From contig NC_086097.1 of the NCBI RefSeq assembly GCF_963921235.1, positions 90,708,001-90,772,000 of the forward strand: a stretch of DNA of 64,000 nt. Reading direction: 5' to 3'. The notes below the pieces were generated by a model. The model saw only the letters and a list, made by a program, of their open reading frames with translations, had not been told where the DNA came from and did not search any database. The position numbers were made by a program, and so were the translations under genes. This document shows positions 126 to 63,460 of the stretch, piece after piece (the first letter of the stretch is position 1; each line of letters opens with the position of its first letter). The DNA comes from Mobula hypostoma. Its lineage: Eukaryota.

Positions 126-772
126 TTGATTTCCATACACTGAGGTAATTCTACTCCAGTTGGAGTGAGAGTAAGATGGACAAATGGTATGCTGGAGTAG
201 ATGCTTTAGAAGTTGACAGTAATTGATCAGATGATCAGGTTCCCTGGGTCCTGATTCATTCACTTTGGCCTGTAATAAATTTGAAATCTTTCGAAAATAT
301 TTCAAATTGATTCCATATTAGTAAAAATCATGATATTTTTATGCATAAGTAAGAAGTCATTCTTTATAATATTTTAACATCAGTTCACAAGGATCAATTG
401 AATGTATGTTGATCAATGGAATCTCATAATGCCTACTCACAAACCCTTGATTGTGTTTCTAGAGCTGCCTTCGTTTCACTTTGTTTGAGAATGCCATATT
501 GCCCCAGGATATCTGTCAGAGCTGAATGAAAATCATTCCAATTGTAGACATGCCATTTTCTGCCGCCAGGCACTTACCCTTCCTTGCTTTAGACATAATC
601 TCAAGTTATTTCCATTTTAACAATTAATGAAAGATGCCAGGATCGCTGAAGCCAACAGGTATTCCAAATGTAAATAAAACATGAGTTCAGCAACCTTTTT
701 CTTTAGTATAGGGAAAACATAACAAAAACAGTGAGGGAAAGATATAACATTCAGATTCAGATTAGTTTATTG

Positions 773-1555
773 TGAAATCCCTTTCTTCTTGGGCATCTCT
801 GGAAACCCAGCTCATTAGCCCCTTGCTAGCAGCCAGTGGATTCTGGGGTGATAAACCCACCTTTCTCAGTCTTCATACGTCTAGGATGTATACGACTTTG
901 GTCCCGCCAAATCCATGAGGGTGGTATGCCTTGCCCACCCAAACCCCGGTTTGTGTGAATACTGTGTGATTTACTGCACTCAGCAAGAATTAACAGGTCG
1001 TACACTGCATACAATTTGTAAAGTATACTTAATAATGTTAATTTAAGCAAACAGTTATTAAATGAAAGAAAGAAAAAAAAACAAAAATGGCCCATTACTC
1101 TTAAGCGGTCAAATGTGCACTTAAGTTGGAGCTCATCTTGAACTTGTCTGTCACTTGCTGGACACTTGGTCTGTGTGAAAGCACACACCATGTTCCAAAC
1201 ATCGCTCGAAATCCATCTTGAACAAACAGGTCTCCCACAGGAGTATTGGTTCTTCCATTTTGAAGCCATTCATCTGCACAAAGCACCCTATGCAGCAGGA
1301 AAGACATCCTCAGCCGTCTTTTCCCGCTGTCTCCTTTCAGCTCCCGCCAACAAAGATCTTCTGCCAAGCGCTCTCCAGAACCTTCTCCCAATTCCACCAT
1401 CCTGATTGGCTGACAGCACATTCCCAAATTGAATAACAAACCTCTTTTCTTAGCTCAAACCCAAACAAGCTGAAAGCAGGACAGATTGCCCTTAAAGAGC
1501 TGTTAAAATGAAATACCTACAGCATAGCAGTTAAAATCTTAAGCAGGGCGTTACA
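773..1555 (-). mobile_element. Probable solo LTR
   Basis: TG...CA ends with imperfect terminal inverted repeat (TGAAATCCCT / AGGGCGTTACA); ATTG duplicated at 769-772 and 1556-1559; interrupts an older LINE tail. Confidence 0.55.
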
Positions 1556-1979
1556 ATTGTTATAAACATCAGGGTGCAATGAAACTGATTGCTCCTTGTA
1601 CCCTCACAGAGTAAACAGTGTACATGGTAATACAGTGACAAGCATAAACCACGTTAAAGTGGAAAGATTATAGTGAAGTCTGAAGTAGTCTGAAGAGGAA
1701 TGTCTGAAGTGACAATAATAGAATGAGTGAAAGAGGTAGAATTAAGAGCTCTGTAACATAGCAGCGCCACTGGGAAGCAGGGTGAAAAGTGTGAAGGAGG
1801 TATATAACAAAGCCAACAAAACTATTCCTATGGATTTTGTCTTTGTGCTATACAGTGTAGGCCTTTTCGCCCACCAAGTCCATACTTACTGTCAACCAAC
1901 CATTTACCAGTCCTCCCTTATTCCCAGATTATTCTCCCTACATTCCCATCCATGCCAAACAGATTCTACCACTCTCTTT

Positions 1980-2185
1980 CACACTAGGAGCAAATTACAG
2001 TGGTCATTTAACTTAGCAAGTTGAACATCTTTTGTATGTGGGAGGAAACTGGAGCACCTAGAGGAAGCCCACATGGCCTTAAGGAGAATAAGCAAACTCC
2101 ACACAGAAGTGCCAGGGGTCGGTGTTGAACCTGATTTACTGGAGTAGTGAGGCAGCTGCTGTATTGGTTACACAAGGTTACTGCA
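1980..2185 (-). mobile_element. tRNA-derived V-SINE (HE1-like)
   Basis: V-domain-like TGTGGGAGGAAACTGGAGCACC...CAAACTCCACACAGA followed by a B-box-like segment on the - strand; related copies at 7750, 31838, 46620, 48400. Confidence 0.7.
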
Positions 2186-3714
2186 CCTTCATTTATCTAG
2201 CAAGTCCTAATACTGTGAAAAACTAATGAAGGGATTCACATTTACTTATATTGCAACATTTACACATTTGCATGGTTTTGCAGAGATGAACGAGTTGTAT
2301 ATTAGCAAGTTTTTTCTCCTTCATAAACTAGCCCATATTTGCATGAGCATGCTATGTTCTGCCTTTGAAATCCATTCTATTGAAGTCAGCAGAACATATG
2401 CCAGAGGCAGATCACGAAGCACTGCTGTGAATATATAGCACAGTTGGCAGTACCCACCAGCATTTCGTGCATCTTGTAGACAGTTTTAAGTCCATTTCTG
2501 CTTTTCTCCAGCAACATGAATGGCCTTTGAGCCATCAAATATTCTATGTTACTGAACATGCCAGAAGCTTAGAAATAGGATTTCTGTCATCTTTCCCAAG
2601 ACCGGCAGGCTAAGAAGAACCTGGTGCCTTGAAAGATGTCCAAGTCGCACCACGTGACACAACGGGCTGCTGAGTGTTTGGTGCTGGAAGATTCCATGGT
2701 TCGCAAGGCACAAGCCATCATGCACCGGTGGTTGGGGCTCACCCAGTCCATGCACTGAGGCTTTTATTCATGCTGCATTGTGCTGTGAACGCCATCTGTG
2801 GCCTACACCTCTGCATGGTGATGGAAAGTTTCAGAAGGGAGAGACAGGTTAGTATTGCTACTAGATGCTTATATGTATGTGCCAGGTGCCCATGGGATGT
2901 GCCATACATTTGTAAGATTGCAGACCATGATTCACATAATTAATGTTTTTAATGGTTAGTATTACATAAATATTGTGCTACTCATTTGAATTTTAAGACA
3001 CATATACTTATAAAAGTCATAACAATTCCCCTACAGTACCGAGATCAAGATTCCTATCTGAGTGAGCTTATGCATTAAAGTCTTGCTACAAGTGCAGGAT
3101 ATCTGTTGAGGCAGTGCTGCATTGTCGGATGTGCTGTTTCTTTTCCACAGTGACCGTTAAACCATCTCAGGTACCCTCGCAGGTGAAGAGAGGCAACACT
3201 TCTCAATTCTCAAGAAATGCTTGTGTTGGTTCCTCAGGCACTGAAATCTTTTAGCCACTGTGAGAAGGAGTGTCACAGATAGGTGCGTTTTTGACTTCCT
3301 GGAATCAAGACTGTTTCAAGTATTAATCTCTAGCAAGAATAACCACACTCAATTCATAGAAGGGTCCTAGTCTGATTTTCACGATGTATGGGCCTATCTT
3401 CAGATAGATTAACATAATTAATCTTCCTTTAATGTCATTGGAGGTACCCTGGTAAATTATGTCAGTTTGCTGAGGCAAAACAGCTTTAATGAGGTATATC
3501 TTCCCTCCAGGATTCTCTTCTCTTGACTTGGTGAAGTTGCATCAACATTAAGTGAAATAAGAGCTCATCCATGTGTTTGTAGTTGTGTAGGTGTGCGTAG
3601 TCAGGAAAGGGGAGGGAGGAAGTGACGGAGTGATATTGAGTGACAATACGTGGAGCTGCATTTACACCAACAGCAATGCAATAAGTATTACTGGGCTATT
3701 AGGGGGGACTGGAT

Positions 3715-4480
3715 GAGCTGTGATTGTCTTCTCTGGAGTGGAGAAGGCTAAGGGGTACAGATATATGCCAAAGTAAGAGGAGAATAGATAGTTTTGATAG
3801 TAAAAATCTTCTTCTCATGGTGTGGATATCTTTGGCAAGTGGGTATACATTCATGGTGAGGAGTAGATGATTTAGAGAGGATGTTCCTCTATTCCCCACT
3901 CTGACCTTTCATTTCCTTTCACCTGCCTATTACTTCCCCCTAGGTCCCCTCCTCCTTCCCTTTCTCCTATTGTCCACTCTCCTCTCCTATCAAATTCCTT
4001 GCTCTTCAGCCCTTGACCTTTCCCAACCACCAGGCTTCACCTATCACCTTCCTGCTATCCTCCTATCCCATCCCACCCCCACCTGTTTATTCTGGCATCT
4101 TCCCCCTTCCTTTCTAGACCCGAAGAAGGGTCTCGGCCTGAAACATCGACTGATTATTCATTTCCATAGATGCTGCCTGACCTGTTGAGTTCCTCCAACA
4201 CTCTGTGTGCGTTGCTTTGGATTTCCAGCATCTGCAGACTTTCCTGGGATGTGATGGGGATTCTTTTCATCTGGAGCACAGCTGGAGTTCAGAATGTGCT
4301 GTCAGGGAGGGTGGTGCAGGCAGATACTCTCATGATATTGAAGAAACATCTACACAAACACTTGACTTATTGACGCATGGAAGGCTATGGGATTAGTGTA
4401 GATAGGCACAATGGGTGGCATAAACATAGTGGGCTGAAGGGTCCGTTTCAGCTTGGTTTGACTCAATTACTTTGTGACTC
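3715..4480 (+). mobile_element. CR1 LINE 3' fragment split by a Penelope terminus
   Basis: CR1 ORF2 C-terminal-like sequence (TTCTCTGGAGTGGAGAAGGCTAAGGGG) at 3715-3880 resumes near 4245 with the CR1 3' UTR (GGGCTGAAGGGTCCGTTTC). Confidence 0.6.
3885..4245 (+). mobile_element. Penelope 3' UTR/terminus with mutated hammerhead core (4115-4152)
   Basis: C/T-rich UTR, then TAGAC-CCGAAGA-AGGGTCTCGGCCT-GAAAC-ATC-GACTG and the conserved AGATGCTGCCTGACCTG..GAGTTCCTCC tail. Confidence 0.8.
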
Positions 4481-9509: not shown

Positions 9510-12500
9510 ATTTAGTCATGTCCTCATGACATTCAAATAATTTGCCATCCCTTCCTGCAAAACACAGAGCCCAATCCAAGTGCAGAAAGCAGTGACACCG
9601 CTCCCCAAAACAGTGGAGACCACACTCTCTGATCCTTGGTAGGAAAAGCTTGAGTATATCTGGTGTAGTGGTCCGTGATGACTAAGACATCCACCGTGTT
9701 GCTGGCATCGGGTTCTACAGCCAGGAAATCCATACACACCAGGTCCAAAGGTCCCGCACTCTGCAAGTGTGACAAAGGATCAGCCTGCCCAGGCAGCGTC
9801 TTCCGCCGTATACAACGAATGCAGGACTTGCAGTAGTCTTCGACCTCCGACCTCATTCGGGGCCAGTAAAACCGGTTCTTGAGCAATCCATAGGTCTTTT
9901 CCACCCCCAAATGTCCAGAGTCATCATAGAGGGACTTCAACACAACCTTCCGATACTTCTCAGGCAGGACCAGCTGCCAACGCCGAGGTTGGTCCAGGGG
10001 TGATGTTACATGGTATAAAATTTGGTTCTTCAACCTCAACCGAAGCCATCCTCTCAGTAACAGAGACACTGAGATGTGTTTTTCCCGTGTCACATGCCCC
10101 TCTTTAACTGCGTGCCAGACAGGGCCAATGCTTGGGTCACCTAACTGACCAGCGGCCACTTCCCCAGGGCTTAACTCCAGCAGCTGCGTGGTCTTCAGAG
10201 CAGTCAGGTCACAGTAAACTAGGGGTATGGCATCATCGGACGCCCTCAATGGGTCCACTGCGCGATCTGGCCTCTCCTTTTTCTTGGCCTGCATGGTGAT
10301 TGCAAACTGACACATGGCCTTCACCCCGGATGCAGGAAGACTCTTCCACTCCTCGTCCCTCTCCAGTTCCTCATGCCTCAGTTGGGACAGAGCATCAGCA
10401 TCGACATTCCGGCTCCTCGGCTGGTACTTCAGGATGAAATCATATACAGACAACACTGCCAGCCACCGATGGCCTGTGACATTCAGTTTTGCTGAGGTCA
10501 GGATGTAGGTAAGTGGGCTGTTGTCTGTCCCCACTTCCAACTTGGCCCCATAGAGATAGTCACTCAGCTTATCCACCACCGCCCATTTCAATGCCAGGAA
10601 CTCCAACTTGTGGGTGGGATAGTTTCTCTCAGAGAGTGACAAATGCTCCAGGCCTCAGCCCGGAGCCCTGATCCTGATACAGGACAGCCCCTAATCCCTC
10701 ACGTCTGGCATCGGTGTGCAGCACATAGGGCAATTGGGGGCCCGCAAAAGCCAGCACTGGAACATGAGTCAGCATCTCTTTCAGCGACTGAAAAGCCTCC
10801 TCACATTTGTCATCCCATCTCTGGCCAAAGGGCTCTGACAGGTTCAAATGTTCTCCAACCTCCCGTCCTCTCCTCCCTTTCCCTTTCTGTCCCAGGGGAG
10901 GGTAGCCGTGCAGAAGCTGGTTCAAGGGGTGACTCATCTTGGCATAGCCCTTCACGTATCTCCGGTAGTATCCACAGAACCCCAAGAACGAGCGCAGAGC
11001 ACTCACAGTCTGGGGCCTCGGCTAAGTGGTCACCACTTCTATCTTAGCCGGGTCAGTGACTACTCCTGTTTGTGCGATTATGTGTCCAACATAGCTAACA
11101 GACGTCTGGCAGAACTGACATTTGTCCAAGGAAAGTTTTAATCCTTCATCCTTCAGTCGGTTCAGCACCTTCATTAACCTCGCTTCGTGTTCTTCCAAGG
11201 TGGATCCAAATACTATCAGGTCATTCAAATATACCAGCACTTCAAGCAATTTCTTCTCCTCCACCATCTTCTCCATGACCCTCTGAAAGGTGGCAGGGGC
11301 TCCCGATATGCCCTGGGGCATCCTTTCGAGCTGGAAAAATCCCAGAGGGCATATGAATGCAGTCTCACTCATCGAGATCTGGTAATATCCACTCCACAAA
11401 TCCAGTACGTTGAACCACTTCACTTCCCCCCACTCAGTCAGGCCAGCGCATCTTCGGCCCTGGGACCATATACTGGTCAGGGACGGTGTGCCTGTTCAGG
11501 GTCCTGTAATCCATACACATACGAATCTTCCCATTTTTCGTCCAGGCCACTACTATTGGGGACGCATAAGGGCTTCGGGACTCCGCGATGATCTTGGCTA
11601 CCTTCAACTTGCACAAATGCTGCTGCCAGTCGCCGCAACCTCTCTCGAAACGGAGTGCCTTCAATCACCCAGATGGTGTGGCGAGTGCTCCTGGAACAAC
11701 CCCCATTCAACTCATCAAGGGAGAAAACATCTTTCAGCGTCAACATCTTCTCCACCAGCCTTTGCTTCCAACAGAGGTGAGGTCCCAAAGTTAAAAGCTT
11801 CAGCGGTCAACTTATCCCTGTTTTCTAATAGCTCTCCCCCAGCAAGCCTCACGGGGGCACTATGCATCACCATCACCGGGAACAATCGTGCCAAGGGCAC
11901 CCCGCGCTTAAAGTTGACCTCCCTTTCCGTAGTGTTCCTGACGATCACCACCATCCCACGTGCCTGTACCACCAAGGGCTTCTGCAACTCGAGTCTCACC
12001 AGCACCTCGGCCGGAAATCTTGATTCCCCCTCGAGATCTTCCGGGGTGTCCACTAAAAGGGCTTCACCCTCAGGCACCCCGGGGAATCTGGAGGTTGTTA
12101 TCACTCTCTTTACTTCCCCGGGTCGTACCACCCTGGGCTTCGACTGGGCACACCACGTCATTCCTCTTTTAAATTCCGTGTCCAGCCCAGTGCGGCCACA
12201 CACTTCCTTAAACGCGGTTTGAAACACTGGGTGCACCAACAAGGTCTCCAAAATATCTTCACCTGCCTGCTCCTTGCAGGCCCCCAGGAGCCTTCGTACA
12301 ATAGGGGTGTTGGTACCCACCAGAATGGACACACCCCCAGTCTCAACTGGGTCTGGGCAAGCCAGCACCATGGCCTCATGAACTGCAGACACTCCCACCC
12401 TCAGCCTCCAAAAACTCCAGTTTCACTGACAGATAACTGTCGTACGGGTAATCACCAGAGCTGTTACCTCAAATTTCCAGCACACTGAAGGGTGTCAAGG

Positions 12501-22074: not shown

Positions 22075-23096
22075 AGTCCTGGGTATGACTCTAAACTGAA
22101 ACTGGTGATGAGGCTCTGGTTGGGGAGTTTCAGAGCTTTGGGGAAAGTGGAGTTACCCCTTAGTCATTCATTGCCCCCAGGGCCACTCTGACCCGGAACG
22201 GTAGCACCTGCAAGGGTTCCTGCTCAGGATACGAGCGAAGGCCAATTCAGATCCGGCAGGTTCAATAACTAAACTTATGACAGAGATGGCGGATGAGTTA
22301 GGACCTCAAATGTCAATGGCTATAGTACAGGTAGATGAACTTTTGGGAAGAGAAATGGTGATTTCTTTAGTTTGCCCAACAGTAGGCAATAGCAAACCAC
22401 CGTTGCTAGATACTAGGTTTCCTAGAATCTACTGGCTAAGAAAACCATGGTAAAACTCACAAAATGTATCACACAACAACAGTGTCAAGAGGATCTTCAA
22501 GACAATTTTGAAGATGCTTCGCTCAGTAGGGTTGATTCTGGTCTGCAGGGGATCCCCGAATGTCATCAAGACTAACATCATGGGAATTTGCGAAGTTCGT
22601 TGGAGAGGTGCTGGAACATGTCAGAATAGAATTAAAACACTAATTTATTCTTGTGGAACATCCCATACTAATGGAGTAGGAATTCTTATGGATGAAAACA
22701 TGGCAAAAAGTGCTTTAGGACATTGGGCAATATCAGAAAGAGTGCTCCTTGTTAGATTCAGAAGACAACCATTTGATTTAGCAATTATACAGATATATGC
22801 ACCAATAAACAGATGGAACAAATGAGGATATAGATAAATTCTGTGAAGAGCTTGAGCAAACAAAGAATGGATGCAAATTTCAAGATGTTGTTATTGTCAT
22901 GGGAGATCTAAATGCTAAAGTAGGACAAGGTGCTGATGGAAATACCATAGGAAAATTTGGGCTAGGGGAAAGAAATGAAAGAGGTGAGAAATGGGTAGAA
23001 TGGTGCAAGATGAATAATCAGGTCATTATGAATACCCACTTTAAAAACCATCCAAGATGCTTGTGGACCTGGAAAAGTCCAGGTGATAACACTAGA
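22075..23096 (+). mobile_element. RTE-clade LINE 5' part: leader plus APE endonuclease, disrupted
   Basis: IMGICEVRWRGAG, NGVGIL, ISERVL, IIQIYAP, MGDLNAKVG, GKFGLGERNERGE, NTHFK..WTWKSPG. Confidence 0.85.
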
Positions 23097-23149
23097 GGTG
23101 GTGAAGATGGTATTTGGCAGTTCTGTCTTCATTAGACAAGGCGCTGACT

Positions 23150-23335
23150 GCAAGAGCCAGGATAACAAGTAAAATGCTGGAGGAACTCACTGGGTCTATA
23201 GAGGAAAATGGACAGTTGGCATTTTGGATTGAAAACTTTGATCCTGACATTTCCCTCCACAGATGCTGCATGACCTGCTGAGTTCCTCTGGCATCTTGTC
23301 TATTGCTCCAGATTGCAGTAACCAGTATCTTATGT
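23150..23335. mobile_element. Palindromic pair of Penelope termini, central core largely deleted
   Basis: AAATGCTGGAGGAACTCA ... TGAGTTCCTCTGGCATCTT inverted arms. Confidence 0.7.
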
Positions 23336-23689
23336 CTACAAGGGTGGGGATGACATTTTACAGCTGTACGAGATGTTGGTCAGTCTGCAGCTGAATTATT
23401 TTGCACAGCTCTGGTTGCCATATTAGCAGAAGGATATAATTAAGCTAGAGGGTGCAGAAAAGATTCATAGCAATATTGCTGGGATGGGAGGGATTGAGTT
23501 ATGAGGAGAGACTGAATAGGCTGGGACTGTGCTCCCTGGAGTAAAGGAGGCTGAGGGGCGAACGTATAGATGTTTATAAAGCCATGAAATGGTTAGATAA
23601 GGCAGATGATCACAGCCTTTTTGTAATCAGCTCTTTGGGCCTGAGAGTGTTGGGCTCCGAGATTTTTAGAGCACCTGAAATGGTTAATT

Positions 23690-23926
23690 CACAAACATGA
23701 GAAAACCTGCTGGTGCTGGAAATATAAAGCATCATACACAATATACTGGAGGAACTCAGCAGTCCAGAGACCATCTATGGAAAAGAATAAACGGTTGATG
23801 TTTCAGGCCAAGACCATTCTTTAGTCCTGAAGAAGGGTCTCGTTCTGAAGCATTGACTTTTTATACTTTTCCATAGATGCTACCAGCCTTGCTGAGTTCC
23901 TCCAGCATTTTGTGTGTGTTGCTTTG
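23690..23926. mobile_element. Palindromic Penelope-terminus mini-element with TSD
   Basis: Inverted arms around 23820; 11-bp TSD AATGGTTAATT at 23679-23689 and 23927-23937; hammerhead-like core at 23822-23859. Confidence 0.9.
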
Positions 23927-23963
23927 AATGGTTAATTGTTTAATAAGAGTTGTTAACTGTGGA

Positions 23964-25873
23964 GCTCCTGCCCCACCGAACTCGTTTCTGCATACCTCAA
24001 CATGGTTTTATCCCCCCTTGTTCAATCCCTTCCTACCTATGTTCGTGACACTTCTCACGCTCTTAAACTTTTCGAAGATTTTAAGTTCCCTGGCCCCCAC
24101 CGCTTTATTTTCACCATGGATGTCCAGTCCTTATATACTTCCATCCCCCATCAGGAAGGTCTCAAAGCTCTCCGCTTCTTTTTGGATTCCAGACCTAATC
24201 AGTTCCCCTCTACCACCACTCTGCTCCGTCTAGCGGAATTAGTCCTTACTCTTAATAATTTCTGCTTTGGCTCCTCCCACTTCCTCCAAACTAAAGGTGT
24301 AGCTATGGGCACCCGTATGGGTCCTAGCTATGCCTGCCTTTTTGTTGGCTTTGTGGAACAATCTATGTTCCGTGCATATTCTGGTGTCTGTCCCCCACTT
24401 TTCCTTCGCTACATCGACGACTGCATTGGCGCTGCTTCCTGCACGCATGCTGAGCTCGTTGACTTTATTAACTTTGCCTCCAACTTTCACCCTGCCCTCA
24501 AGTTTACCTGGTCCATTTCCGACACGGCCCTCCCCTTTCTAGATCTTTCTGTCTCTGTCTCTGGAGACAGCTTATCCACTGATGTCTACTATAAGCCTAC
24601 TGACTCTCACAGCTATCTGGACTAAAGAGGAATAGTCACCCTGTCTCTTGCAAAAATGCCATCCCCTTCTCGCAATTCCTCCGTCTCCGCCGCATCTGCT
24701 CTCAGGATGAGACTTTTCATTCCAGGACGAGGGAGATATCCTCCTTTTTTAAAGAAAGGGGCTTCCCTTCCTCCACTATCAACTCTGCTCTCAAACGCAT
24801 CTCCCCCATTTCACGCACATCTGCTCTCACTCCATCCTCCCGCCACCCCACTAGGAATAGGGTTCCCATGGTCATCACCTACCACCCCACCAGCCTCCGG
24901 GTCCAACATATTATTCTCCATAACTTCCGCCACCTCCAACGGGATCCCACCACTAAGCACATCTTTCCCTCCCCCATCTCTCTGCTTTCCGCAGGGATCG
25001 CTCCCTACGCGACTCCCTTGTCCATTTGTCCCCGCCATCCCTCCCCACTGATCTCCCTCCTGGCATTTATCCTTGTAAGCGGAACAAGTGTTACACATAT
25101 CCTTACACTTCCTCCCTTACCACCATTCAGGGCCCCAGACAGTCCTCCCAGGTGTGGTGACACTTCACCCTGTGAGTCGGCTGGAGTGATATACTGCGTC
25201 CGGTCCTCCCGATGTGGCCTTCTATATATTGGCAAGACCTGACGCAGATTGGGAGACCGCTTTGCTGAACACCTACGCTCTGTCCGCCAGAGAAAGCAGG
25301 ATCTCCCAGTGGCCACACATTTTAATTCCACATCCCATTGCCATTCTGACATGTCTATCCACGGCCTCCTCTACTGTAAAGATGTAGCCACACTCAGGTT
25401 GGAGGAACAACACCTTATATTCCGTCTGGGTAGCCTCCAACCTGATGGCATGAACATCGACTTCTCTAAATTCCGCTAAGGCCCCACCTCCCCCTCGTAC
25501 CCCATCTGTTACTTATTTTTATACACACATTCTTTCTCTCACTCTCCTTTTTCTCCCTCTGTCCCTCTGACTATACCCCTTGCTGATCCTCTGGTCCCCC
25601 CCCACCTTGTCTTTCTCCCTAGGCCTCCTGTCCCATGATCCTCTCATATCCCCTTTGCCAATCACCTGTCCAGCTCTTGACTCCATCTCTCCCCCTCCTT
25701 GTCTTCTCCTATCATTTTGGATCTCCCCCTCCCCCTCCAACTTTCAAATCCCTTACTCACTCTTCCTTCAGTTAGTCCTGACGAAGGGTCTCAGCCTGAA
25801 ACGTTGACTGCACCTCTTCCTATAGATGCTGCCTGGCCTGCTGCGTTCACCAGCAACTTTGATGTGTGTTGCT
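23964..25873 (+). mobile_element. Penelope-like element, 5'-truncated: RT, GIY-YIG endonuclease, 3' UTR, terminus
   Basis: TMDVQSLYTSIP, QTKGVAMGTRMGPSYA, LRYIDDC, LPFLDL, VYYKPT; GIY-YIG VIYCVRSSRCGLLYIGKT..RFAEH..PVATHFN; a few stops and frameshifts. Confidence 0.95.
25773..25810 (+). ncRNA. Minimal type I hammerhead ribozyme in the Penelope terminus
   Basis: TAGTC-CTGACGA-AGG(GTCTCAG)CCT-GAAA-C-GTT-GACTG: CUGANGA and GAAA core, helix II AGG/CCT, helix I TAGTC/GACTG, GUU cleavage triplet, loopless palindromic helix III (AACGTT). Confidence 0.8.
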
Positions 25874-27405
25874 ATATTTCCTTGTGTTCTTCTCGAGCGA
25901 CTCGCTCTTTGTAATGTGGACTTCTGGTGCTTTCTGTTTAAGCTTGTTAAGTTTATTTTGATAAGTTCAGGGATTCCACATTACTAGTATTATTCAAGCA
26001 GATGCCCGATTAGCACTAATCGCAGGGTCCTAATTTTGAGAATGTTACTCCTCGCCGAACCACTGATGGCTTTATGGAATTGTTATGAATCAACTCTCGT
26101 CGTCAACTCTACATCAGAGTCTGTCCTTGCTCTGCACTTGGGTTCCAATATTGCCAGTGCACATCGTGACTCTTTGTCTCAAGGCAGGGGAGTCTAAAAC
26201 TAGAAGGCATAGGTTGAATGTAAGTGGGGAAAGATTTAAAAGGAATTAGAGAGGCAAGTTTTCACACAGAGGGTTGTGGGTACATGGAATGAACTGCCAG
26301 AGGAAGTGATAGAGGTGGGAGCAATTAGAGCATTTAAAAGACATTTGGACAAATGCATGAATAAGAAAGGGTCCGAGAGTTACGGACTAAATGCAGGCAA
26401 ATGGAACTAGCTCAGAAAGACACCTTGCTCAGCATGGACTAATTCTTCAGATGGGCTTGTTTCCATGCTGTAGAGCTCTGACTCTGCACAAAGGTAATGA
26501 CAGTTTATCTAAATTCTTGTGTAGACAGGGCAAGGTGGTGCAAGATTTGCAGTCATTAAGTATGGAGTGCGAACTATAGCAACAAGGTCACAAAATAACA
26601 GAGTGGAAGACGAAGAGGGACAGCTGAAAATGTACAGCAGGTTTTTATCTTAAAACAACAGACCCTCAGTAACTGCATTTAGAATGAGGTGCCTTGGACA
26701 GTCAGCGGGAGATGTTGGTGGTTTGATCACTTCCTTTATATGATTCCTTTTAAACCTAAGCCTTCCCTGTCCCTCACTGTAATTCTGTCAGAAGTACCAG
26801 TGAAATAGAGCAAACCACGACTTTCCCCAATTTAACTTTCTAAAATAACCATTAAGATCATGTATTTACTCTTGGTCCAGAACAAGTTATAATTGAAAGT
26901 ATCATCAGATTCTGTGTCAAAAGGAAGCATTTGGGAGGCAGGGCAGCTTCCTAACGGCTTGCTTTTCATGCAGAGGATTGAAATTTGATTATAATGAGAC
27001 TGGCCAAGAGTAGGCTAGGAAGAGAAATTTTCTATGTATAATATTCGTCTTTTCATTGGATTTATGATGTCCATCAGGATGATTGGCAGATTTAAGGCAG
27101 CAGATTCATTCATGATTCTGACAAACAATGAAAGGTTAAAGCTTAGCAAAGCCATTCGGAGATCTGCCTCATTTGTTAAATTGCTGAGGTCAAAGCCTTT
27201 GTTTCAGCCTGGTTTGTGGAATGCATGAGTTGTCTATAAATGAAAATTATTTTCTCATTCACACCTACTTCTTAGTGATCATTGTTTTCTAGGTAAGGGG
27301 GCAGAAAAGAGGCATCTGCAAACTTTTTTCCAGCCATTAAGAAAAGCATAGGGGAATTTCAGAGATCTCTGTCCAGTGGAACGTCCCTTCCAATACAGAT
27401 ATCTG

Positions 27406-27668
27406 ATGATGATGATGTCGACTCAGGCCTGAGAGGGGCCAGCGTCAGGCATTTTCATGCTTTACAAGGCGCGGATCGGAAGGCTGTGTGGGGCGCCAGC
27501 CCTTGCACAGACATTTCGCAGTATTTTTCTTCATTTTACGAGGTTGAGTTGCGATTTCGACACTCAACCTGGCACGGATGGAAAGCATACTCGGGAGAGG
27601 CCTGACTGGATTTGAACCCAGGAACCTCAGTTCTGGAGTCCGCCACTGATGTCACTGCGCCACCAGCT
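27406..27668 (-). mobile_element. tRNA-derived SINE with (ATC)n tail
   Basis: Head and CGACACTCAACC..GGCACGGA core shared with 5796-6004; TSD GATATCTG at 27398-27405 and 27669-27676. Confidence 0.8.
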
Positions 27669-27676
27669 GATATCTG

Positions 27677-28300
27677 GTAAGATGGCAACATGTTCGATTG
27701 CAGCTGCTTTTACAAGGTTAACCATAGTTGTTGTTGTCTTTTTTGAGTGTATTTTTTACGATTGCAAAATCCTGCTGGATGTTAAGAAATTAAAGTAGTG
27801 CAGGTCTACCTCATCAGTGAGTTGCTTGTTGGTGGAGAATTTGAAGGAGCTGGATGGTGCAGATTGAGCTGCTGCCTGTGTCAGAGAGGTATCAGAAGAG
27901 TCGGTGCACAAAGGTGGGGTGCAGTCTAACAGCGAGTGTTCATCTTGGTCACTTTTCTTGTGATTGCAAGACTCTGTTGAATATCGTTAACGTGGAATGC
28001 TGCAAATCCTGTTCGCTGATGTATTGGCAGATGACGGGGAGCAGCATGGCCTCAGTCGTAGTGAGGACTAGGCCTGAAACCGCAGTGTCGTCTGTTTACA
28101 GCCCCCCAGGAGAGAGGAGTTGGAGTTGGTACACTCCACCAGAGGTGGTGAGGCTTGGCATCCAAGCTAGAGTCAGTGCTGCCCCCCATTGTTCGCTCGG
28201 CAGATGGTGTTCAACTGCAGACTGCTAAAATATTCATGGGCTCAGGTTTCGTTTGCCCTGTATTCATACGTGGTTGAATGTTAATTATACTTGAACTTGT
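27677..28300 (+). mobile_element. Older non-coding LINE-derived element (AAGATGGC head, Rex1/L2-type tail); related piece at 40260-40700
   Basis: Starts TAAGATGGC; shares CTGTTT(T)ACAGCC.CCAGGAGAG with about 40342; ends TTTCGTTTG..CTTGAACTTG. Confidence 0.5.
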
Positions 28301-28459
28301 CTGTACATTATTCAGTAACTGTTGAATAACCCATCCCAGATTGGAAATCTGTCCAGTGCTGAATCATCACAAATGTCCCCGCTCTTCATAATACAGTGCA
28401 CAACTGGCCAAAGGCTCTATTTTACGCTGAACAGAAGAGACGATTTAAATTTTGAGTGA

Positions 28460-28632
28460 ACAGGCACAAATTGCTGGAGGGATTCAGCAAATCAGGCAGC
28501 ATTTGTGGAGAGAAATAAACAGTCAATGTTTTGGACCGAGACCCTTCATCAGGACTTGATGAAAGGTCTTAGGCTGAAGGATTGACTGTTTATTCCCCTC
28601 CAAAGGTGCTGTCTGACTTGCTGAGTTCTTCT
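28460..28632. mobile_element. Palindromic pair of Penelope termini with back-to-back hammerhead-like cores
   Basis: AATAAACAGTCAAT ... ATTGACTGTTTATT arms; centre CTTCATCAGGACTTGATGAA. Confidence 0.85.
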
Positions 28633-29184
28633 AGTTTACACCATTTGTTTCTTGGATTGCTAATCCAGCACCAAACCACAGAGATGAGTATAATTGATTT
28701 ACTCAGAAAACCTTTAATACATCGGCATTAATCATTTAGAAATTCCATCTTGCAGACAGACTCGACTTCAGATCTGGAAATTTAATCACAAGTTGTCATA
28801 CCTCTTCCTAAAAATAAGTAAACTTATCTATATTGCTGTATTTAGCCATATAGTACCATTGACTGCCTATTCAATTGATGTTTCTCACACAAACTTTCTT
28901 ACACCATGTTTCTTCCGCTTCCCATTCTGCCTTGCCACATTTGGTATCCAAGATACTATGCTGATGCCCACCAGTTCCATGTGCTCCACTAGCAAAATTT
29001 ACGTAACTATTTGTGGATTATACTTGTGGTCCATCATCCTTCCTTGTCTTCCTAAATGTCTCTCCAACCTAATTGCAGATGACCACAACCTCACATTCTT
29101 AGGAATATAGAAAATGAGGAAATAGGAACAAAAGTAGACCATTCAAACCCTCAAACCTGTTCCATCATTTAGTAAGGTCATGCC

Positions 29185-36650: not shown

Positions 36651-36749
36651 TCACCTCCAGGTTCAATCCAGACCTCTGGCACTGGCTGTGCAGCATTTTC
36701 CTCTGTCAAAGCGCTCCGGTTTCCTAGCAAATACCAAAGATATCCTGAC

Positions 36750-36876
36750 CAAAGAGAATACAGATGCTGGAATCTGGAGCAGCACACAAAGCACTGGAGG
36801 AACTCAATATGTCAGCAGCATCTACAAAGGGTAATGGACAGTCAACATTTCAGACTGAGATATCTCATCAGGACAA
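36750..36876 (-). mobile_element. Penelope terminus with hammerhead core (36839-36874)
   Basis: - strand GTC-CTGATGA-GATATCTCAGTCT-GAAA-T-GTT-GACTG. Confidence 0.75.
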
Positions 36877-37519
36877 AGATTTTCATCAAATAAATTGTCC
36901 TCTGTAAATTGCCCTCAGCAATGCCATTTGAATCGACGAACAAATAAACTGACATGTGCGAGCAATGTTATTGAGGTACAGAACAAAAACCTGGAGGTGA
37001 ATCCATGGGGAACTCCTAATGTCTTCTAGGATCTCAGGTACGTTAGAGGAGAATAAAATGTGATTTTATGATCAGTGTCGACTCAGTGGATCAAAGGATA
37101 GTCTCCAAGTTATATAACTCAATGACAATGTTTTCAGTTTTGTGATTAATTAAATTATGTGGCAAATTATTCTGATAACTGCTTCAAAAAAATCGCCTCC
37201 TTAAAATAACTGTGTGAACTTACAGCCATCCTCAAACACCACTGTCCCTAATGGGATGACTTTAATTAAATTAATTTGAATGAGGCTGATGGCAAGTGCC
37301 CTACACAACAAGCAATACAAATTGCCACAGATGACATCTAGTTACTAATAGGATATAATTACACAGTTAGAAACCGTGACTGAATGTTTGAGGTCACTGA
37401 GTATACTTCTAAATTAACCATGTGTCAGCAATACGAACAAATAACAGAGCATTAGCATTAGCCCTTGTACACTGCTATTATCTGCAGATAGAGCAAGCAT
37501 AACTCTGGGTTAGACTTAA

Positions 37520-37620
37520 GCAATGCACACAAGAAGCTGGAGGGACTCAGCAGGTAGACAGCATCCACTGAGATGTACAAACCGTCAATCTTTCAGGCTG
37601 AGACTCTTCTTCAGGGCCAT
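37520..37620 (-). mobile_element. Penelope terminus with hammerhead core (37583-37617)
   Basis: - strand GCC-CTGAAGA-AGAGTCTCAGCCT-GAAA-G-ATT-GACG. Confidence 0.7.
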
Positions 37621-37632
37621 TCTGTAGACCTA

Positions 37633-38147
37633 AGGCTGATTTATACTTGTGTGTCAAATTGATGCCATAGGTATGGCGTAGCCGCGAACCCTGCGCAGTG
37701 CCTACGTGGATCCCTACGCCGTAGCCTGACACACATTTCTCCCAAAATGTAACTACGCGTCATGGCAACACAGACCGCAACAACTGTGATTGGTCCGCTT
37801 GGTAGTATCATATTTCCTCCTACGCTGCAGTAGCTTCCCATTGGGTGACTGAAGGGCAGGGAAGGAACGCTGGCTGCAATGCTTTCCATAAAGCTTTACA
37901 GACCTCTGAAATTATGGAGGACACATTTTGCTTTTACAAAAAAAGATGCTCGCTTTAAACTTGTTTACCCTGAGAAAGACTACCATGACCATGAAGCCTT
38001 GCAAGGGCAGGTGTGTGCACATGCGTGACATGCGCGAATTGCAGAGCGACGTAGACACACGAACACACAAGTATAAATGCTCACAATGGCGTAGCCCACT
38101 TGCGTAGGCTACGGCGTAAGCTGGTACGCACAAGTATAAATCAGCTT
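37633..38147. mobile_element. Non-autonomous DNA transposon (PIF/Harbinger-like MITE)
   Basis: TIR AGGCTGATTTATACTTGTGTGT / ACGCACAAGTATAAATCAGCTT; 3-bp CTA/TTA flanks; subterminal GCGTAG repeats; extra internal TIR copy near 38066. Confidence 0.8.
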
Positions 38148-38449: not shown

Positions 38450-38645
38450 AAAACAGAATATTTTGGAAATACTCAGCAGGGGAGGCTGCAACAGTGGGAA
38501 GAAAAATGGAGTTAATGTATCAGTTCCAGACCTAGGGTCAGAACCCATGAAGACCATTCTGATGAAGGGACTTCGACCTGAAATGTTAACACTATTTCTC
38601 TTCCCACAGATACAGCCTGACCTGCTGATTATTTCCAACATCTGC
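38450..38645. mobile_element. Palindromic pair of Penelope termini; + strand hammerhead core at 38556-38590
   Basis: TTGGAAATACTCAGCAGG ... CCTGCTGATTATTTCCAA arms; CTGATGA-AGG..CCT-GAAA-T-GTT. Confidence 0.75.
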
Positions 38646-42184: not shown

Positions 42185-42375
42185 ATGCCGGACATCTGAA
42201 ATACAAGCAGAAATGTAGAGATACTTGGGCGGTCAGGTGAAGAGAGTGAAAAAGTGATGCTTCAGGTTGAAGACCTTACATCAGGACTCACTAGAATCTC
42301 ATTAACCTGAAAAGTTAACTCTTTTTCTCTCTCCACAGATGCTGCCTGACTGGCTGAGTACTTCCAGCATTCTTG
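42185..42375. mobile_element. Palindromic pair of Penelope termini, degenerate
   Basis: Inverted arms around CATCAGGACT; AGATGCTGCCTGACTGGCTGAGT tail. Confidence 0.65.
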
Positions 42376-43149
42376 AACCAAAATTTTTCACTGGTTGTGA
42401 AACGTTTTAGAATGCGTTAAGTTTGAAGAAGGCGAATACATCAGAGTTCTTAAAGAGCATGGATAGACACTTGAAAAAAATACTTAGCAGGGTTGCAGGA
42501 AATGGGGAAAGGAATGGAATTGTATGTAATGAGTCAGCATGGACTCAATTGGCTGAATGGCCTATTTCTGCACCTAATGATTAAGCAATTCTATCAAGAT
42601 CAGTAGGTGGTGAATTGTTTCAAATGTGCGACTAATATGTGGATATTAATCTCCCAAAAATTTCATAATGACCAGGTTTACAATGAGGCTAAATATAGCC
42701 CAATGACTAAATTGCAACTTTGTTCATCTTTTGCCTTCAGCAAAAGATCTCATCATGGATTTAAATCCCTCAGATCATTACCTTATGAGCTACTGAATCC
42801 GATTAGTAAATATGACTCAATCACCTTAAAAGCATTTTATTTAAGGAAGTAAAGAGCACAGTTCCATACTGAGTGTCATCAAATCCAGAGTAATTAGGCA
42901 GTGATAATGCACTTTCTTCTGAGAATGTCAATGTTTTCACTTAGACTGGTCTCCTGCTAAGCAAATCGTGGAGGATTTCAGTGGTTGCAATGTTTTGTTG
43001 TGGAAGTTTTACAAAATTAGCTTGAATAATTTTGTATTTCCTTATAAATAGAAGAAGACCATCTGGCCCAATGATACTATGTTGACCGTCAGAGAATCCC
43101 CATCCATCCCACACTCCAGCTTACCTGTAACCCATTCTCTCTCTCACAC

Positions 43150-45139: not shown

Positions 45140-45706
45140 ATATAGAAAACATACAGCACAATACAGGCCCTTCGGCCCACAAAGCTGTGCCAAACATGTC
45201 CTTACCTTAGAACTACTTAGGCTTTACCCATAGCCCTCTATTCTTCTAAGCTCCATATAGCCATCCAGGAGTCTCTTAAAAGACCCTATCGTTTCCGCCT
45301 CCACTACCACCGCTGGCAGCCCATTCCATGCACTTGCCACTCTCTATGTAAAAAAACTTAACCCTGACGTCTCCTCTGTACCTACTTCCAAGCACTTTAA
45401 AACGAAGTCCTCTTGTGCTAACCATTTCAGCCCTGGGGAAAAGCCTCTGACTATCCACATGATCAATGCCTCTCATTATCTTGTACACCTCTATCAAGTC
45501 ACCTCTCATCCTCCATTGCTCCAAGGAGAAAAGGCCGAGTTCACTCAACCTATTCTCATAAGGCATGCTCCCTAATCCAGGCAACATCCTTGTAAATCTT
45601 CTCTGCACCCTTTCTATGGTTTCCATGTCCTTCCTATAGTGAGGCAACCAGAATTGAGCACAGTATTCCAAGTGGGGTCTGACCAGGGTCCTATATAGTT
45701 GCAACA
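45140..45706 (-). pseudogene. CR1 ORF2 C-terminus and 3' UTR
   Basis: LYRTLVRPHLEYCAQFW..ERVQRRFTRMLPG..RGDLIEVYKIM. Confidence 0.9.
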
Positions 45707-47689: not shown

Positions 47690-48870
47690 AGATTCATACG
47701 GCTTGGATACTGGCCCTTTTCTCCAACTCATCCATACCTATCAAGGTGCCTTCCTAAACTAATCCCATTTATCTGTGCTTGTCCCTCGAAACCTTTCCTA
47801 TTAATGTATCTGTCCAAATGTATTTTAAATCTTGAAATTGCACCCACCATTATCACCTCATCAGGCAGCTTGTTCCAAGTACTCTCCACCCACTGTGTCA
47901 AAAAAACTAACCACCCAGATCTCCTCTGCATCTTCCCCCTCTCTCCTTAAACCAATACCCTCTATTTTTGATTCACTACTTTGGGGAAAAAAGGCTGAGA
48001 CTCTCCACCAGGTCTATGCCACGCATAATTTTATAAACCTCTTTAAGATAACCACGTAGTTGACTTCACCCAAGGTAAAACAGTCCCAGCTTACCCATTA
48101 TTTCCTTACAACTCCAACTTTTTTGGATGCAATTGCTAATTTATACCAATGTTGATAGTGCTGAGTAGGTAAGAAGGGTATAGCAATAGCAGATGGAATT
48201 TAATCCCGTATGAGGTAATGCACTTTGGAAGCACTAATAAGGATAGGGTAAACACAGTAAGTGGTAGAGCCTTAGGATGTATTGAGGGACAAAGTGACTT
48301 TGGTTTGCAAGTACAAGGACCCCTAAAGGTGGGAGTACAGGTAGATAAGGTAGTGGATAAAGCATATGGGGTGCTATCATCATTGCTAGTCAGCATCTAG
48401 GGTTTAAATCCTGCCACTGCCTGTTAGGAGTCTGTATGTTCTTCCCCTGACTGCATGGGCTCCTGCAGATGCTCCAGCTTCCTTCCTCATTCTAAAGATG
48501 TACAGTACGTACAGGTGAGGGTAAGTGAGTTGTGAGCATGTTATGCTGGTGCTGGAATTGTGTCAACTCTTGCTGGTTGCCCAGCACAACCCTCGCTGAT
48601 TTGATTTGATGCAAAATGACACATTGCTCTGATGTAATGTGATAAATAAAGCTAATCTTTTATCTTTAATCATTAGCCTTCCTTAGTAAGGGCATAGAAT
48701 ATAAGACCAGGGAAGTTATAGTACAGCCTGATAAAATATTGACTCGCTCACTGCTGGGGTACTGTGTACAGTTCTGGTTGCCACACTGTAAGGAAGAAGT
48801 GATAGTACTGCAGATTGCATTGGAGGATAATCAGGTTGTTGCCTGAAATGTGAAGAGAGACTGGATAGAC
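47690..48870. mobile_element. Cluster of CR1 fragments (- at 47690-48115; + at 48185-48870) with a V-SINE at about 48400-48670
   Basis: TQWVESTWNKLP..FKIHLD (-); MHFGSTN..QVDKVV.KAYG (+); V-domain GGAGTCTGTATGTTCTTCCC. Confidence 0.65.
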
Positions 48871-49799: not shown

Positions 49800-50632
49800 G
49801 ATAGAGTCATAGAAAAGTACAGTACAGGACCAGGCCTTTCGGCCCATCTAGTTAGTGCTGAACCATTTAAACTGCCTATTTCCATCAACCTGCACTGGGA
49901 CCACAACCCTTTATAGCTCTAACATCCATGTACCTATCCAAACTTCTCTTAAATGTTGAAATCGAGCTCTCATGCACCACTTGCACTGGCAGCTCGTTCC
50001 ACACTCACACAACCCTCTGAGTGAAGAAGTTTTTCCTCATGTTCCCTTAAACTTTTTACCTATTACCCTTAACCCATGACCTCTGGTTGTAGTCCCACCC
50101 AACCTCAGTGCGAAAAATCTCCTTTCAATCATCTACATTCCAAGGAATAAAGTCCTAACCTATTCAATCATTCCTTATAACTCAGGTCCTCCAGACCCAG
50201 CAACATCCTTGTAAGTTTTCTCTGTACTTTTTCAACCTTATTGACATCTTTCCTGTAGGTAGGTGACCAAAACTGCATGCAATATTCCAAATTAGGTCTT
50301 ACCAACTTCATCTGATACAACTTCAGCATAATATCCCATCTCCTGTACTCAATACATTGATTTATGAACGCCAATGTGCCAAAAGCTTTCTTTTCAACTG
50401 TATCTACCTGTGATGCTATTTTAAATTAATTATGGCCCTGTATTCCCAGACCCCTTTGTTCTACAGCACTCCTCAGTGTCTGTTGTTCACTGTGTAAAAC
50501 CTACCCTGGTTGGTCTGACCGAAGTGGAACACCTCCCACTTGTCTGCATTAAGTTCCATCTGCCATTTTTCAGCCCATTTTCCCAGCCAGTCCAGATAGT
50601 CTTTGATAGTCTTCCTCACTGTCCACTACAAA
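49800..50632 (-). mobile_element. CR1 ORF2 C-terminus and 3' UTR
   Basis: LVRPNLEYCMQFWSP..KVQRKLTRML.GLE.LSY; tail CTATGACTCTAT. Confidence 0.85.
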
Positions 50633-54509: not shown

Positions 54510-55160
54510 TGAGTGTTTTGCGCCAAAACCCTTCGGCAGGACTGGAGAAAAGAGCTAGAGAGTAAATTTAAAAGGTGGGTGGAGGGGAGTGAGAAACACA
54601 AGGTGACAGGCGAAACCTGGAGGGGGAAGGATGAAATAAAGAGCTGAGAAGTTGATTGGTGAAAGATACAGAAGGCTATGGCCTCATCACGACAGTGGAG
54701 AAGGCCATGGATGGACATATCGGAATGGGAATGGGAAGTGGAATTAAAATGGGTGGATACTGAGAGATCCTGCTTTTTCTGGTGGATGGAGCATAGGTGC
54801 TCGGTGAAACAGTAGCCAAATCTATGTCAGGTCTCACTGATATACAGGAGGCCACACTGGGAGCACCAAACATAGTATCTGACCCCCACAGACTTACAGG
54901 TGAATTGTTGCCTCACCTGGAAGGACTGTTTAGCACCCTGAATGGTAGTGAGGGAGGAGGTCAAGGAGCAGGTATAGCACTTGTTCCGCTTGCAAGGATA
55001 AATGCCAGGAGGGAAATCGGTGGGGAGGGACAACTGGACAAGGGAGTCACATAGGGAGTGATCCCTGCAGAAAGCAGAAAGTGGGAGAGGAGGGAAAGAT
55101 GTGTTTAGTGATGGGATCCCGTTGCAGGTGGTGGAAGTTTCACAGAATTATATGCTGCAC
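54510..55160 (-). mobile_element. Penelope 3' part (GIY-YIG region, UTR, degenerate terminus)
   Basis: GIYPCKRNKCYTC..FQVRQQFTC..YYVWCSQCGLLYISET. Confidence 0.85.
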
Positions 55161-58029: not shown

Positions 58030-58290
58030 GGCTGGGGTCTTGAGGCTTGAGCTTGGAGACAGGCTTGGGGTCTTGAGGCTTGAGCTTGGAGACTGGTTTG
58101 GGGTCTTGAGGCTTGAGCTTGGAGACAGGCTTGGGGTCTTGAGGCTTGAGGCTGGAGACAGGCTTGGGGTCTTGAGGCTTGAGGCTGGAGACAGGCTTGT
58201 GGTCTTGAGGCTGGCGTCTTGAGGCTTGAGGCTGGGGTCTTGGGTCTTGAGGCTTGAGCGTGGAGACAGGCTGGGGTCTTGAGGTTTGGG
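58030..58290. repeat. 33-bp tandem repeat inside the LTR
   Basis: GGGGTCTTGAGGCTTGAGCTTGGAGACAGGCTT, about 5 full plus partial units. Confidence 0.9.
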
Positions 58291-58711
58291 GCCGCTAACT
58301 CGGAGGCTGGAGCTCGGAGACAGACCGGGAACTGTACATCAACAGAGAGCCGGGACTTATCCTTCGAAAAGCCAGGACTCATCTTTAACACGACACTAGC
58401 ATGAGACTGGACAGTACATAGACATAGAGCCAGGTCTTATCCTTAGACAAGCTGGGACTCAACTTTATCTCTACACCAAGGTGGGACAGGTCCATCTGTC
58501 GAGTAATGGCAGAACGGCCGGACTTACTCAACAGAGGCAAAGACAAGACAAGACAGGTCCCCCTGCAGGGCAACAGCAGAACAGCCTGACTTACCCCCCA
58601 GAGGCGAGGACAAGACAAGGCAGATCCCCTCACAGGGCAACGGCAGAACGACCTGACTTACCCCATGGAGGTGAGGACAAGAAGAGACAAACACTGAAGA
58701 ATGACAGACAG

Positions 58712-63324: not shown

Positions 63325-63460
63325 CAGATGCTGGAAATCAGAAGTATATACAGACAATACTGGAAGTATTCAACAGATCAAGCAGCATCTAACGAAAGCT
63401 CTCTGACTGGAAACTCTGTTTCTCTGAACTGCTGAGTGTTTCCAGCAATTTCTGTTTTAC
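63325..63460. mobile_element. Palindromic pair of Penelope termini, core deleted
   Basis: CAGATGCTGGAAAT..CTGGAAGTATTCAACAG versus CTGCTGAGTGTTTCCAGCA arms. Confidence 0.6.

Follow-up and report, generated by a model that had tools for sequence, protein, structure and literature searches.

Within the window (the whole stretch of DNA that was analysed, 64 kb in length), an insert of 237 bp (23690-23926) is enclosed by an exact 11-bp direct repeat, AATGGTTAATT, with copies at 23679-23689 and 23927-23937. The 11-bp repeat was reached by 2 out of 3000 random window placements (null with ±10 nt of slack), and the right boundary could be set without use of the repeat, given that contigs of the same family run on past 23923-23927 into tail sequence, whereas the focal copy changes at this place to the second 11-bp repeat. 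The initial annotation had described a 237-bp unit flanked by a perfect 11-bp duplication, and this description holds in full. The following features were assigned to the insert and its surroundings:

23636-23686, no strand: repeated left flank, a host repeat (contig depth 675-3175 in sequencing run X1)
23679-23689, plus strand: left copy of the target-site duplication (TSD), 11 bp, AT-rich, with an ATT end on both strands
23690-23725, minus strand: 36-nt tail of a Penelope-like element (PLE), on this arm alone (solo-copy ends and family contigs)
23726-23824, minus strand: left arm, 3' part of a pLTR, from the hammerhead core to the no-tail point (alignment and profile)
23793-23824, minus strand: left fossil minimal hammerhead, which carries G5>A (23822) and lacks stem I's 5' strand
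23822-23829, no strand: centre, a CAG-NN-CTG microhomology that borders hammerhead stem I on its 5' side (28460 has the same centre)
23823-23858, plus strand: right fossil minimal type I hammerhead, with stem I and CUGANGA kept, A15.1>G and a weak stem II
23823-23926, plus strand: right arm, PLE terminus without tail (alignment, profile and family contigs)
23927-23937, plus strand: right copy of the TSD (exact repeat, by sequence comparison)
23966-25873, plus strand: separate 5'-truncated coding PLE with RT, GIY-YIG region, 3' UTR and no-tail terminus (sequence comparison)

The arms are inverted and 78% complementary over 99 nt (23726-23824 against 23827-23925), so the term palindrome is justified for their arrangement, but the palindrome is imperfect and one arm is 36 nt longer than the other. 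Consistent with the claim that the insert is non-coding, no ORF of at least 120 aa in the ORF list of the window overlaps it. Folding of the strand as RNA gave a predicted energy of -114.3 kcal/mol (z -11.1), equalled by none of 200 shuffles, and the long hairpin proposed for any transcript is therefore right as a prediction. At the centre, the first C has decayed to T in the focal copy, and a T>C difference at 23822 accounts for 1081 of a contig depth of 1339.

Contigs from four sequencing runs were aligned to positions 23500-24000 at 80% likeness. The centre is bridged without differences by a 129-nt contig of run X1, which may be the source sample, and the left boundary is bridged by contigs from two other organisms (B and C), with 2 differences in 155 and 20 in 242, respectively; the insert is therefore real and old, and it is common to three related organisms. 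An assembly fold-back artefact was rejected on account of the diverged arms and the bridging contigs. No empty-site joint was present among the 15 joints listed in the contig alignment (329 more were recorded), and an empty-site query detected no second copy of the host flank within the 64-kb window.

The insert had also been placed inside another repeat, which is correct for the left flank (23636-23686), with a depth of 675-3175 against a yardstick of about 6-10 for a single contig in X1, but not evident for the right flank (23942-23958), where the X1 depth is 14.6. The repeat on the left (23636-23689) has hundreds-fold depth in all three DNA runs. By eye, fragments of endonuclease-type LINEs at 22454-23100 and 23340-23625 flank the palindromes at 23150 and 23690; a CR1-like piece among them has copies at 45481-45685, 48030-48114 and 50139-50206.

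The right arm is 75% identical to the terminus of the coding PLE (25772-25873), and the terminus alignments and the profile agree with the view that two inverted Penelope termini are joined head to head. Solo copies at 4115-4243 and 62999-63139 end in the same 36-nt extension as the left arm; the ends of the copies at 25873 and 37518 lie close to the no-tail point, as does that of the right arm (within about 4 nt), and family contigs continue from 23924 to 23721 on the opposite strand (a joint plus loose ends). Judged by these sequence comparisons, the arms are the hammerhead-bearing terminus (pLTR) of a PLE placed head to head, and the 36-nt extension of the left arm is the PLE tail. The insert thus combines homologous termini, head-to-head 5' truncation, a tail at one end, a TSD and a minimal hammerhead, as a PLE insertion should, and we conclude that it is a real, TSD-flanked, minimal inverted PLE insertion that is now an old, decayed and dead fossil without function of its own. 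Arm-to-arm identity (0.78) equals arm-to-solo identity (0.78 and 0.82), and thus there is no sign of selection on the hairpin.

A Mobula hypostoma protein matches the RT fragment of the coding PLE with 91% identity, which makes a ray the probable host, and relatives of the RT carry RVT_1 and GIY-YIG domains. Pfam searches with the coding fragments gave RVT_1 alone (E 7e-6, below the cut-off); the GIY-YIG region of 23966-25873 had no Pfam match, with an Atlas lead to HTH_animal/GIY-YIG, and a PDB search with the RT gave 0 matches. This element begins 28 bp past the right TSD copy and has no TSD of its own by eye; contig depth at 23976-23992 is about 200,000, 128,000 and 29,000 across the organisms, which suggests a younger family. 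The possibility that 23690-25873 is one insertion with an internal deletion was discarded, since the 11-bp repeat closes the palindrome and is followed by 28 unrelated bases, and since the terminus of the coding copy belongs to a different subfamily.

The insert had been called ribozyme-bearing, and a minimal hammerhead motif is indeed found in both arms, but both motifs are fossils with core mutations. Positions 23850 and 23822 are taken by us to be A15.1 and G5 under the hammerhead numbering convention. In the right motif, 23850 is G in the focal copy and A in 9515 of a depth of 11780, and 23843-44 weaken stem II; when the family majority letters from contig depth are used, the intact core pattern is restored at both hammerheads. 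Lying on opposite strands, the two motifs leave one per transcript, buried in the hairpin. Monomer folds of five hammerhead motifs were no stabler than shuffles, as is expected for minimal motifs. At gathering score, Rfam had 0 matches in the window, hammerhead included, and with E up to 10 the region 23000-29000 gave sub-threshold miRNA-hairpin matches and one lncRNA match (7 rows); the miRNA-hairpin matches at the locus are generic.

These data bear on the proposal of a retrozyme or SINE-like family. The insert is short and non-coding, carries a hammerhead-like motif and a TSD, and fits in size the 150-450 bp range of retrozyme monomers (Cervera 2020, PMC7229834); it shares with metazoan non-LTR retrozymes a type I hammerhead and low GC (PMC7229834). 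Retrozymes, however, are described as monomers arrayed in tandem on one strand, whose hammerheads are canonical and active and from which circular RNA is produced (Cervera 2020, PMC7229834); the pair seen here is inverted, decayed and minimal. At the focal locus there is no same-strand tandem hammerhead array, and the PLE-type minimal hammerheads are mutated in their cores and lie on opposite strands, so that the insert is not a retrozyme. ARAGORN detected 0 tRNA genes in the window, Rfam (E up to 10) found no tRNA, 7SL or 5S match in 23000-29000, and both insert ends lack a 3' poly(A) or simple-repeat tail; with no such Pol III head, it is not a SINE either. The proposal was accordingly dropped, and we consider a true retrozyme or SINE very improbable.

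The terminus profile gave 19 matches in the window; with a left arm at 42284 added to these, there are six head-to-head pairs. The same architecture had been reported at 23150, 28460, 38450, 42185 and 63325, and all five sites are indeed head-to-head arm pairs:

23170-23335, no strand: sister palindrome with centre in stem II/III and tail on the right arm (alignment and profile)
28459-28675, no strand: sister palindrome that shares centre and polarity with the focal insert and has its tail on the right arm (alignment and profile)
38452-38643, no strand: sister palindrome of an older subfamily, with a spacer of about 12 nt and a partial tail (alignment and profile)
42185-42379, no strand: sister palindrome of an older subfamily, with tail on the left arm and a 7-bp candidate TSD (alignment)
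63325-63456, no strand: decayed sister palindrome of an older subfamily, with tail on the left arm (alignment and profile)

The junctions had been described as different, and this is true of four of the other sites but not of 28460, whose centre is the focal centre with one extra A, in identical polarity; five different centres thus occur among the six pairs. When TSDs are tabulated, the palindromes of the window provide a single clear case in six (the focal insert) and two weaker candidates, one of them a 7-bp repeat (42185) and the other a match that has decayed (28460). The tail is one-sided in these pairs, with only a partial tail at 38450, and in 6/6 pairs both arms belong to the same subfamily, as read from the alignment.

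By eye, 8 out of 12 arms and 3 out of 7 solo copies in the window have their start no more than about 6-9 nt from the hammerhead core. In all four copies with upstream sequence (4100-4120, 25760-25778, 54540-54560 and 62990-63009), a pyrimidine tract plus YAG stands directly before stem I. As a lead, the edge of stem I may hold a splice acceptor or mark an RNA 5' end that is fixed. In the Penelope element of Drosophila virilis an intron ends at the same place of the hammerhead edge (Cervera 2014, PMC4209133). Two solo stumps of the window start at the hammerhead 5' edge, one with a tail and a 7-bp candidate TSD (36735-36882) and the other with no tail and a 10-bp candidate TSD containing one mismatch (37511-37634). 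There is also an inverted PLE with long arms (54510-55410), in which a minus-strand copy meets a plus-strand piece in the endonuclease-coding region; its junction lies at 55160/55165, and the overlap is 96% identical over 78 bp.

Metagenome contigs were scanned for the palindromic core, which gave 42 loci; the pattern limits centres to at most 30 nt, and these loci are therefore uninformative on how far truncation can go. Eleven of them, including L039 and L026, failed the hammerhead filter, leaving 31; after removal of nine cut by contig ends there were 22 testable loci, and four duplicates reduced these to 18 distinct ones. Because none of the 42 loci had a BLAST match (E 0.001) to the ray terminus beyond the core, they are treated as analogues and not as family members. 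The ray-type terminus motif was found in 0 viral contigs, and in bacterial and archaeal genomes the palindromic core gave 29 stretches, none with two hammerhead-like arms.

TSDs scoring at least 11 (11-18 bp) were detected in 8 of the 18 distinct loci and in none of 165 mismatched flank pairs used as null; a ninth locus scored 10 (null 1/165). They always sit at the end of one arm and 36-59 nt beyond the end of the other, and are AT-rich but without an ATT end. A looser, uncontrolled search gave candidate TSDs at L015, L027, L038 and L039. Several unrelated animal PLE families, represented by host DNA in the metagenome contigs (a subset of L002-L042), share the TSD-flanked hammerhead palindrome with a tail on one arm.

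The variable TSD length of these analogous loci is one of the points against a MITE, a fold-back DNA transposon whose termini would be long inverted repeats and whose TSD would measure 9-11 bp; the long inverted arms and 11-bp TSD of the focal insert could suggest such an element. Its termini, moreover, are not inverted repeats of each other, one end carrying the 36-nt tail, and its arm is the end of the RT-coding element at 23966-25873, so that we regard a MITE as extremely improbable. For genome annotation, such hairpins should be labelled as PLE fragments and not as MITEs, miRNA precursors or retrozymes.

The metagenome PLE families were divided by eye. In one of them the centres of 5/5 loci differ, and in another there are four kinds among five loci. 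Informative sites supporting grouping by locus, by arm or across numbered 49/2/5 and 45/3/0 in two families, the locus pairs not being independent; family F1 was left out of this test owing to a deletion and a short arm. Metagenome arms thus group by locus and not by tail status, although gene conversion between arms could produce such likeness too, as could differing host subfamilies. The same test on the ray loci 23690 and 28460 gave three locus, four arm and one cross site and thus favours neither grouping.

The published layout of PLE insertions comprises inverted pLTRs, an optional 31-bp tail on one of them, an 8-10 bp TSD and palindromes at the junction (Arkhipova 2013, PMC3846280), and the same scheme with a 30-40 bp tail at one end has been reported elsewhere (Craig 2021, PMC8557442). 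The layout of inverted pLTRs, one-sided tail and TSD is thus already known, and the focal insert is this layout without internal sequence. Of the alternatives offered by the initial annotation, an invert-and-truncate product of Penelope integration fits that layout and is the best supported. The varied metagenome centres and the grouping of arms by locus favour formation at integration, and we think it probable that an old insertion, the work of an elasmobranch PLE and its RT/GIY-YIG protein, was cut to its two ends, the palindrome being built during integration with the CAG..CTG centre as a hot spot.

Alternatively, the insert could belong to a non-autonomous family of palindromic mini-PLEs, in which a CAG..CTG palindrome is transcribed and PLE RT/GIY-YIG, acting in trans, inserts it anew. 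A single source hairpin, or a small number of them, would then have given rise to 23690, 28460 and many other copies; in a second form of this reading, the centre would be inherited from a master PLE, at its inverted 5' end. Both forms of this reading seem to us fairly unlikely, but there is evidence in their favour. Besides the centre and polarity shared by 23690 and 28460, paralogues cross the centre in reads at about 8-12% of the adjacent X1 depth (1339 against 16206 and 10899), 71-85 contigs per DNA run have the family letter at the centre, and at least two paralogous contigs of run X5 bridge it with 31 or more letters on each side. In one non-ray family, L015 and L024 align over 144 nt and have in common a centre of 27-28 nt and an arm-specific variant but differ in their outer ends; a near-exact 20-bp repeat of its own flanks L015. 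The centre of this pair is shared by descent, and a palindromic centre has therefore been re-copied at least once. It has also been reported that pLTR sequences are enough for mobilisation in trans (Arkhipova 2013, PMC3846280) and that non-autonomous Chlamys PLEs exist (Craig 2021, PMC8557442).

On the other hand, re-copying from the RNA of one strand predicts a random cut of the 5' arm, as seen in L015, whereas the focal ends fall at family end points; the other four pairs of the window differ in centre, grouping of arms is by locus in both metagenome families that could be tested, and a self-complementary centre can recur without common descent. Clustering of junctions had been put forward as a test, shared junctions being read as the mark of a replicating family. 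Two of the six window pairs do share a centre and contigs bridge it, but recurrence by microhomology is possible: CAG..CTG is inherent in the centre and could serve repeatedly, which confounds the test. In run X17, a putative RNA run, pieces of the family are present with no cover at 23602-23635, which has no bearing on expression.

Returning to formation at integration, we postulate a mechanism of two-strand nicking and priming, to which we give, taken on its own, about an even chance. The PLE protein would make two nicks in an AT-rich target, one per strand and 11 nt apart, and each 3' end would prime cDNA synthesis on the element RNA, the top strand using the tail-end start site and the bottom strand one that lies 36 nt upstream. 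Both cDNAs would stop just beyond the hammerhead and anneal through CAG..CTG, which is self-complementary and borders stem I on its 5' side; fill-in would follow. The focal repeat ends in ATT on both strands (a single case), and both outer ends of the insert fall at family end points, one with the tail and the other without. In L1 twin priming, a 5' inversion likewise arises within one insertion, with the TSD kept and microhomology at the junction; however, the two L1 segments do not overlap, whereas both focal arms would copy the same stretch of RNA.

Regarding the biochemistry, a PLE protein is reported to cut and extend both target strands with a preference for ATT, its RT starting at two internal sites a tail apart (Frangieh 2024, PMC11167929). 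The behaviour in vitro of the element in question, Poseidon of Anolis (PAc), is matched by the focal insert with its two end points a tail apart, its AT-rich target and its TSD with ATT ends on both strands; the main text of that paper does not discuss inverted insertions and TSDs (Frangieh 2024, PMC11167929). PLE integration past the first priming step is treated as unresolved by Craig 2021 (PMC8557442) and Frangieh 2024 (PMC11167929).

With the same PLE origin, the inverted arm might instead be a product of snap-back, the self-priming of cDNA on a transcript that is antisense or bidirectional. Snap-back has been proposed for rotifer PLEs, with self-priming on an antisense template preferred (Arkhipova 2013, PMC3846280), and many metagenome centres are themselves small hairpins. 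The tail, however, cannot be obtained from the no-tail arm, which is the arm holding the extra bases of the centre, and extension of both target strands occurs in vitro with sense RNA (Frangieh 2024, PMC11167929), so that we hold this route to be unlikely. Minimal TSD-flanked palindromes expose in one small insert how far the nicks are staggered, where RT starts (at either site) and where joining takes place, and a genome-wide table of palindromes could test two-strand priming against self-priming, as well as the propagation of stumps.

Among described elements, Pen2a_Av and Pen2_Av of Adineta vaga have, like the focal insert, head-to-head inverted pLTRs with a short palindromic or microhomology junction; their one-arm tail is 31 bp against 36 bp and their TSD 8-10 bp against 11 bp. 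Unlike them, the focal insert lacks both an ORF and a second direct pLTR between its arms, measures 237 bp as a whole and has a recurrent junction at the hammerhead 5' edge. Minimal hammerheads on opposite strands, 100-700 bp apart, have been taken as truncated PLEs (Cervera 2014, PMC4209133), and those pairs share with the focal one the minimal type I fold, a bulged base before stem II and the lack of a true helix III; the focal cores, however, are only 2 nt apart and both mutated, compared with about 100-700 bp in Schistosoma (Cervera 2014, PMC4209133). The word "shark" is absent from the main text of that paper (Cervera 2014, PMC4209133). We found no description of minimal palindromic PLE inserts in elasmobranchs, or of two-strand priming as their cause, in the literature covered, a weak negative given that Repbase/Dfam, supplements and most subscription journals lay outside it.

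If mini-PLEs of this kind do re-copy themselves, hairpin stumps may constitute a self-renewing minimal class of non-autonomous PLEs in elasmobranchs and other animals, generated by double priming and joining at a fixed microhomology and then re-copied, an idea that we put forward tentatively and consider fairly improbable. To a similarly doubtful degree, the joining microhomology of such a class could mark the template RNA's 5' end or a splice acceptor at the ribozyme edge. Were the class real, about one palindrome per 10 kb (6 in 64 kb) would amount to a very large record of PLE events, covering the nick stagger, the RT start sites and the RNA 5' end of these elements.

Apart from the PLE copies, broken pol regions of LTR retrotransposons with frames resembling protease, RT, RNase H and integrase were recognised by eye at 9533-12422 (minus strand) and 55598-62242 (plus strand), the latter being interrupted, among others, by a 33-bp tandem array (58029-58288) and a LINE ORF1-like frame (59311-59997).
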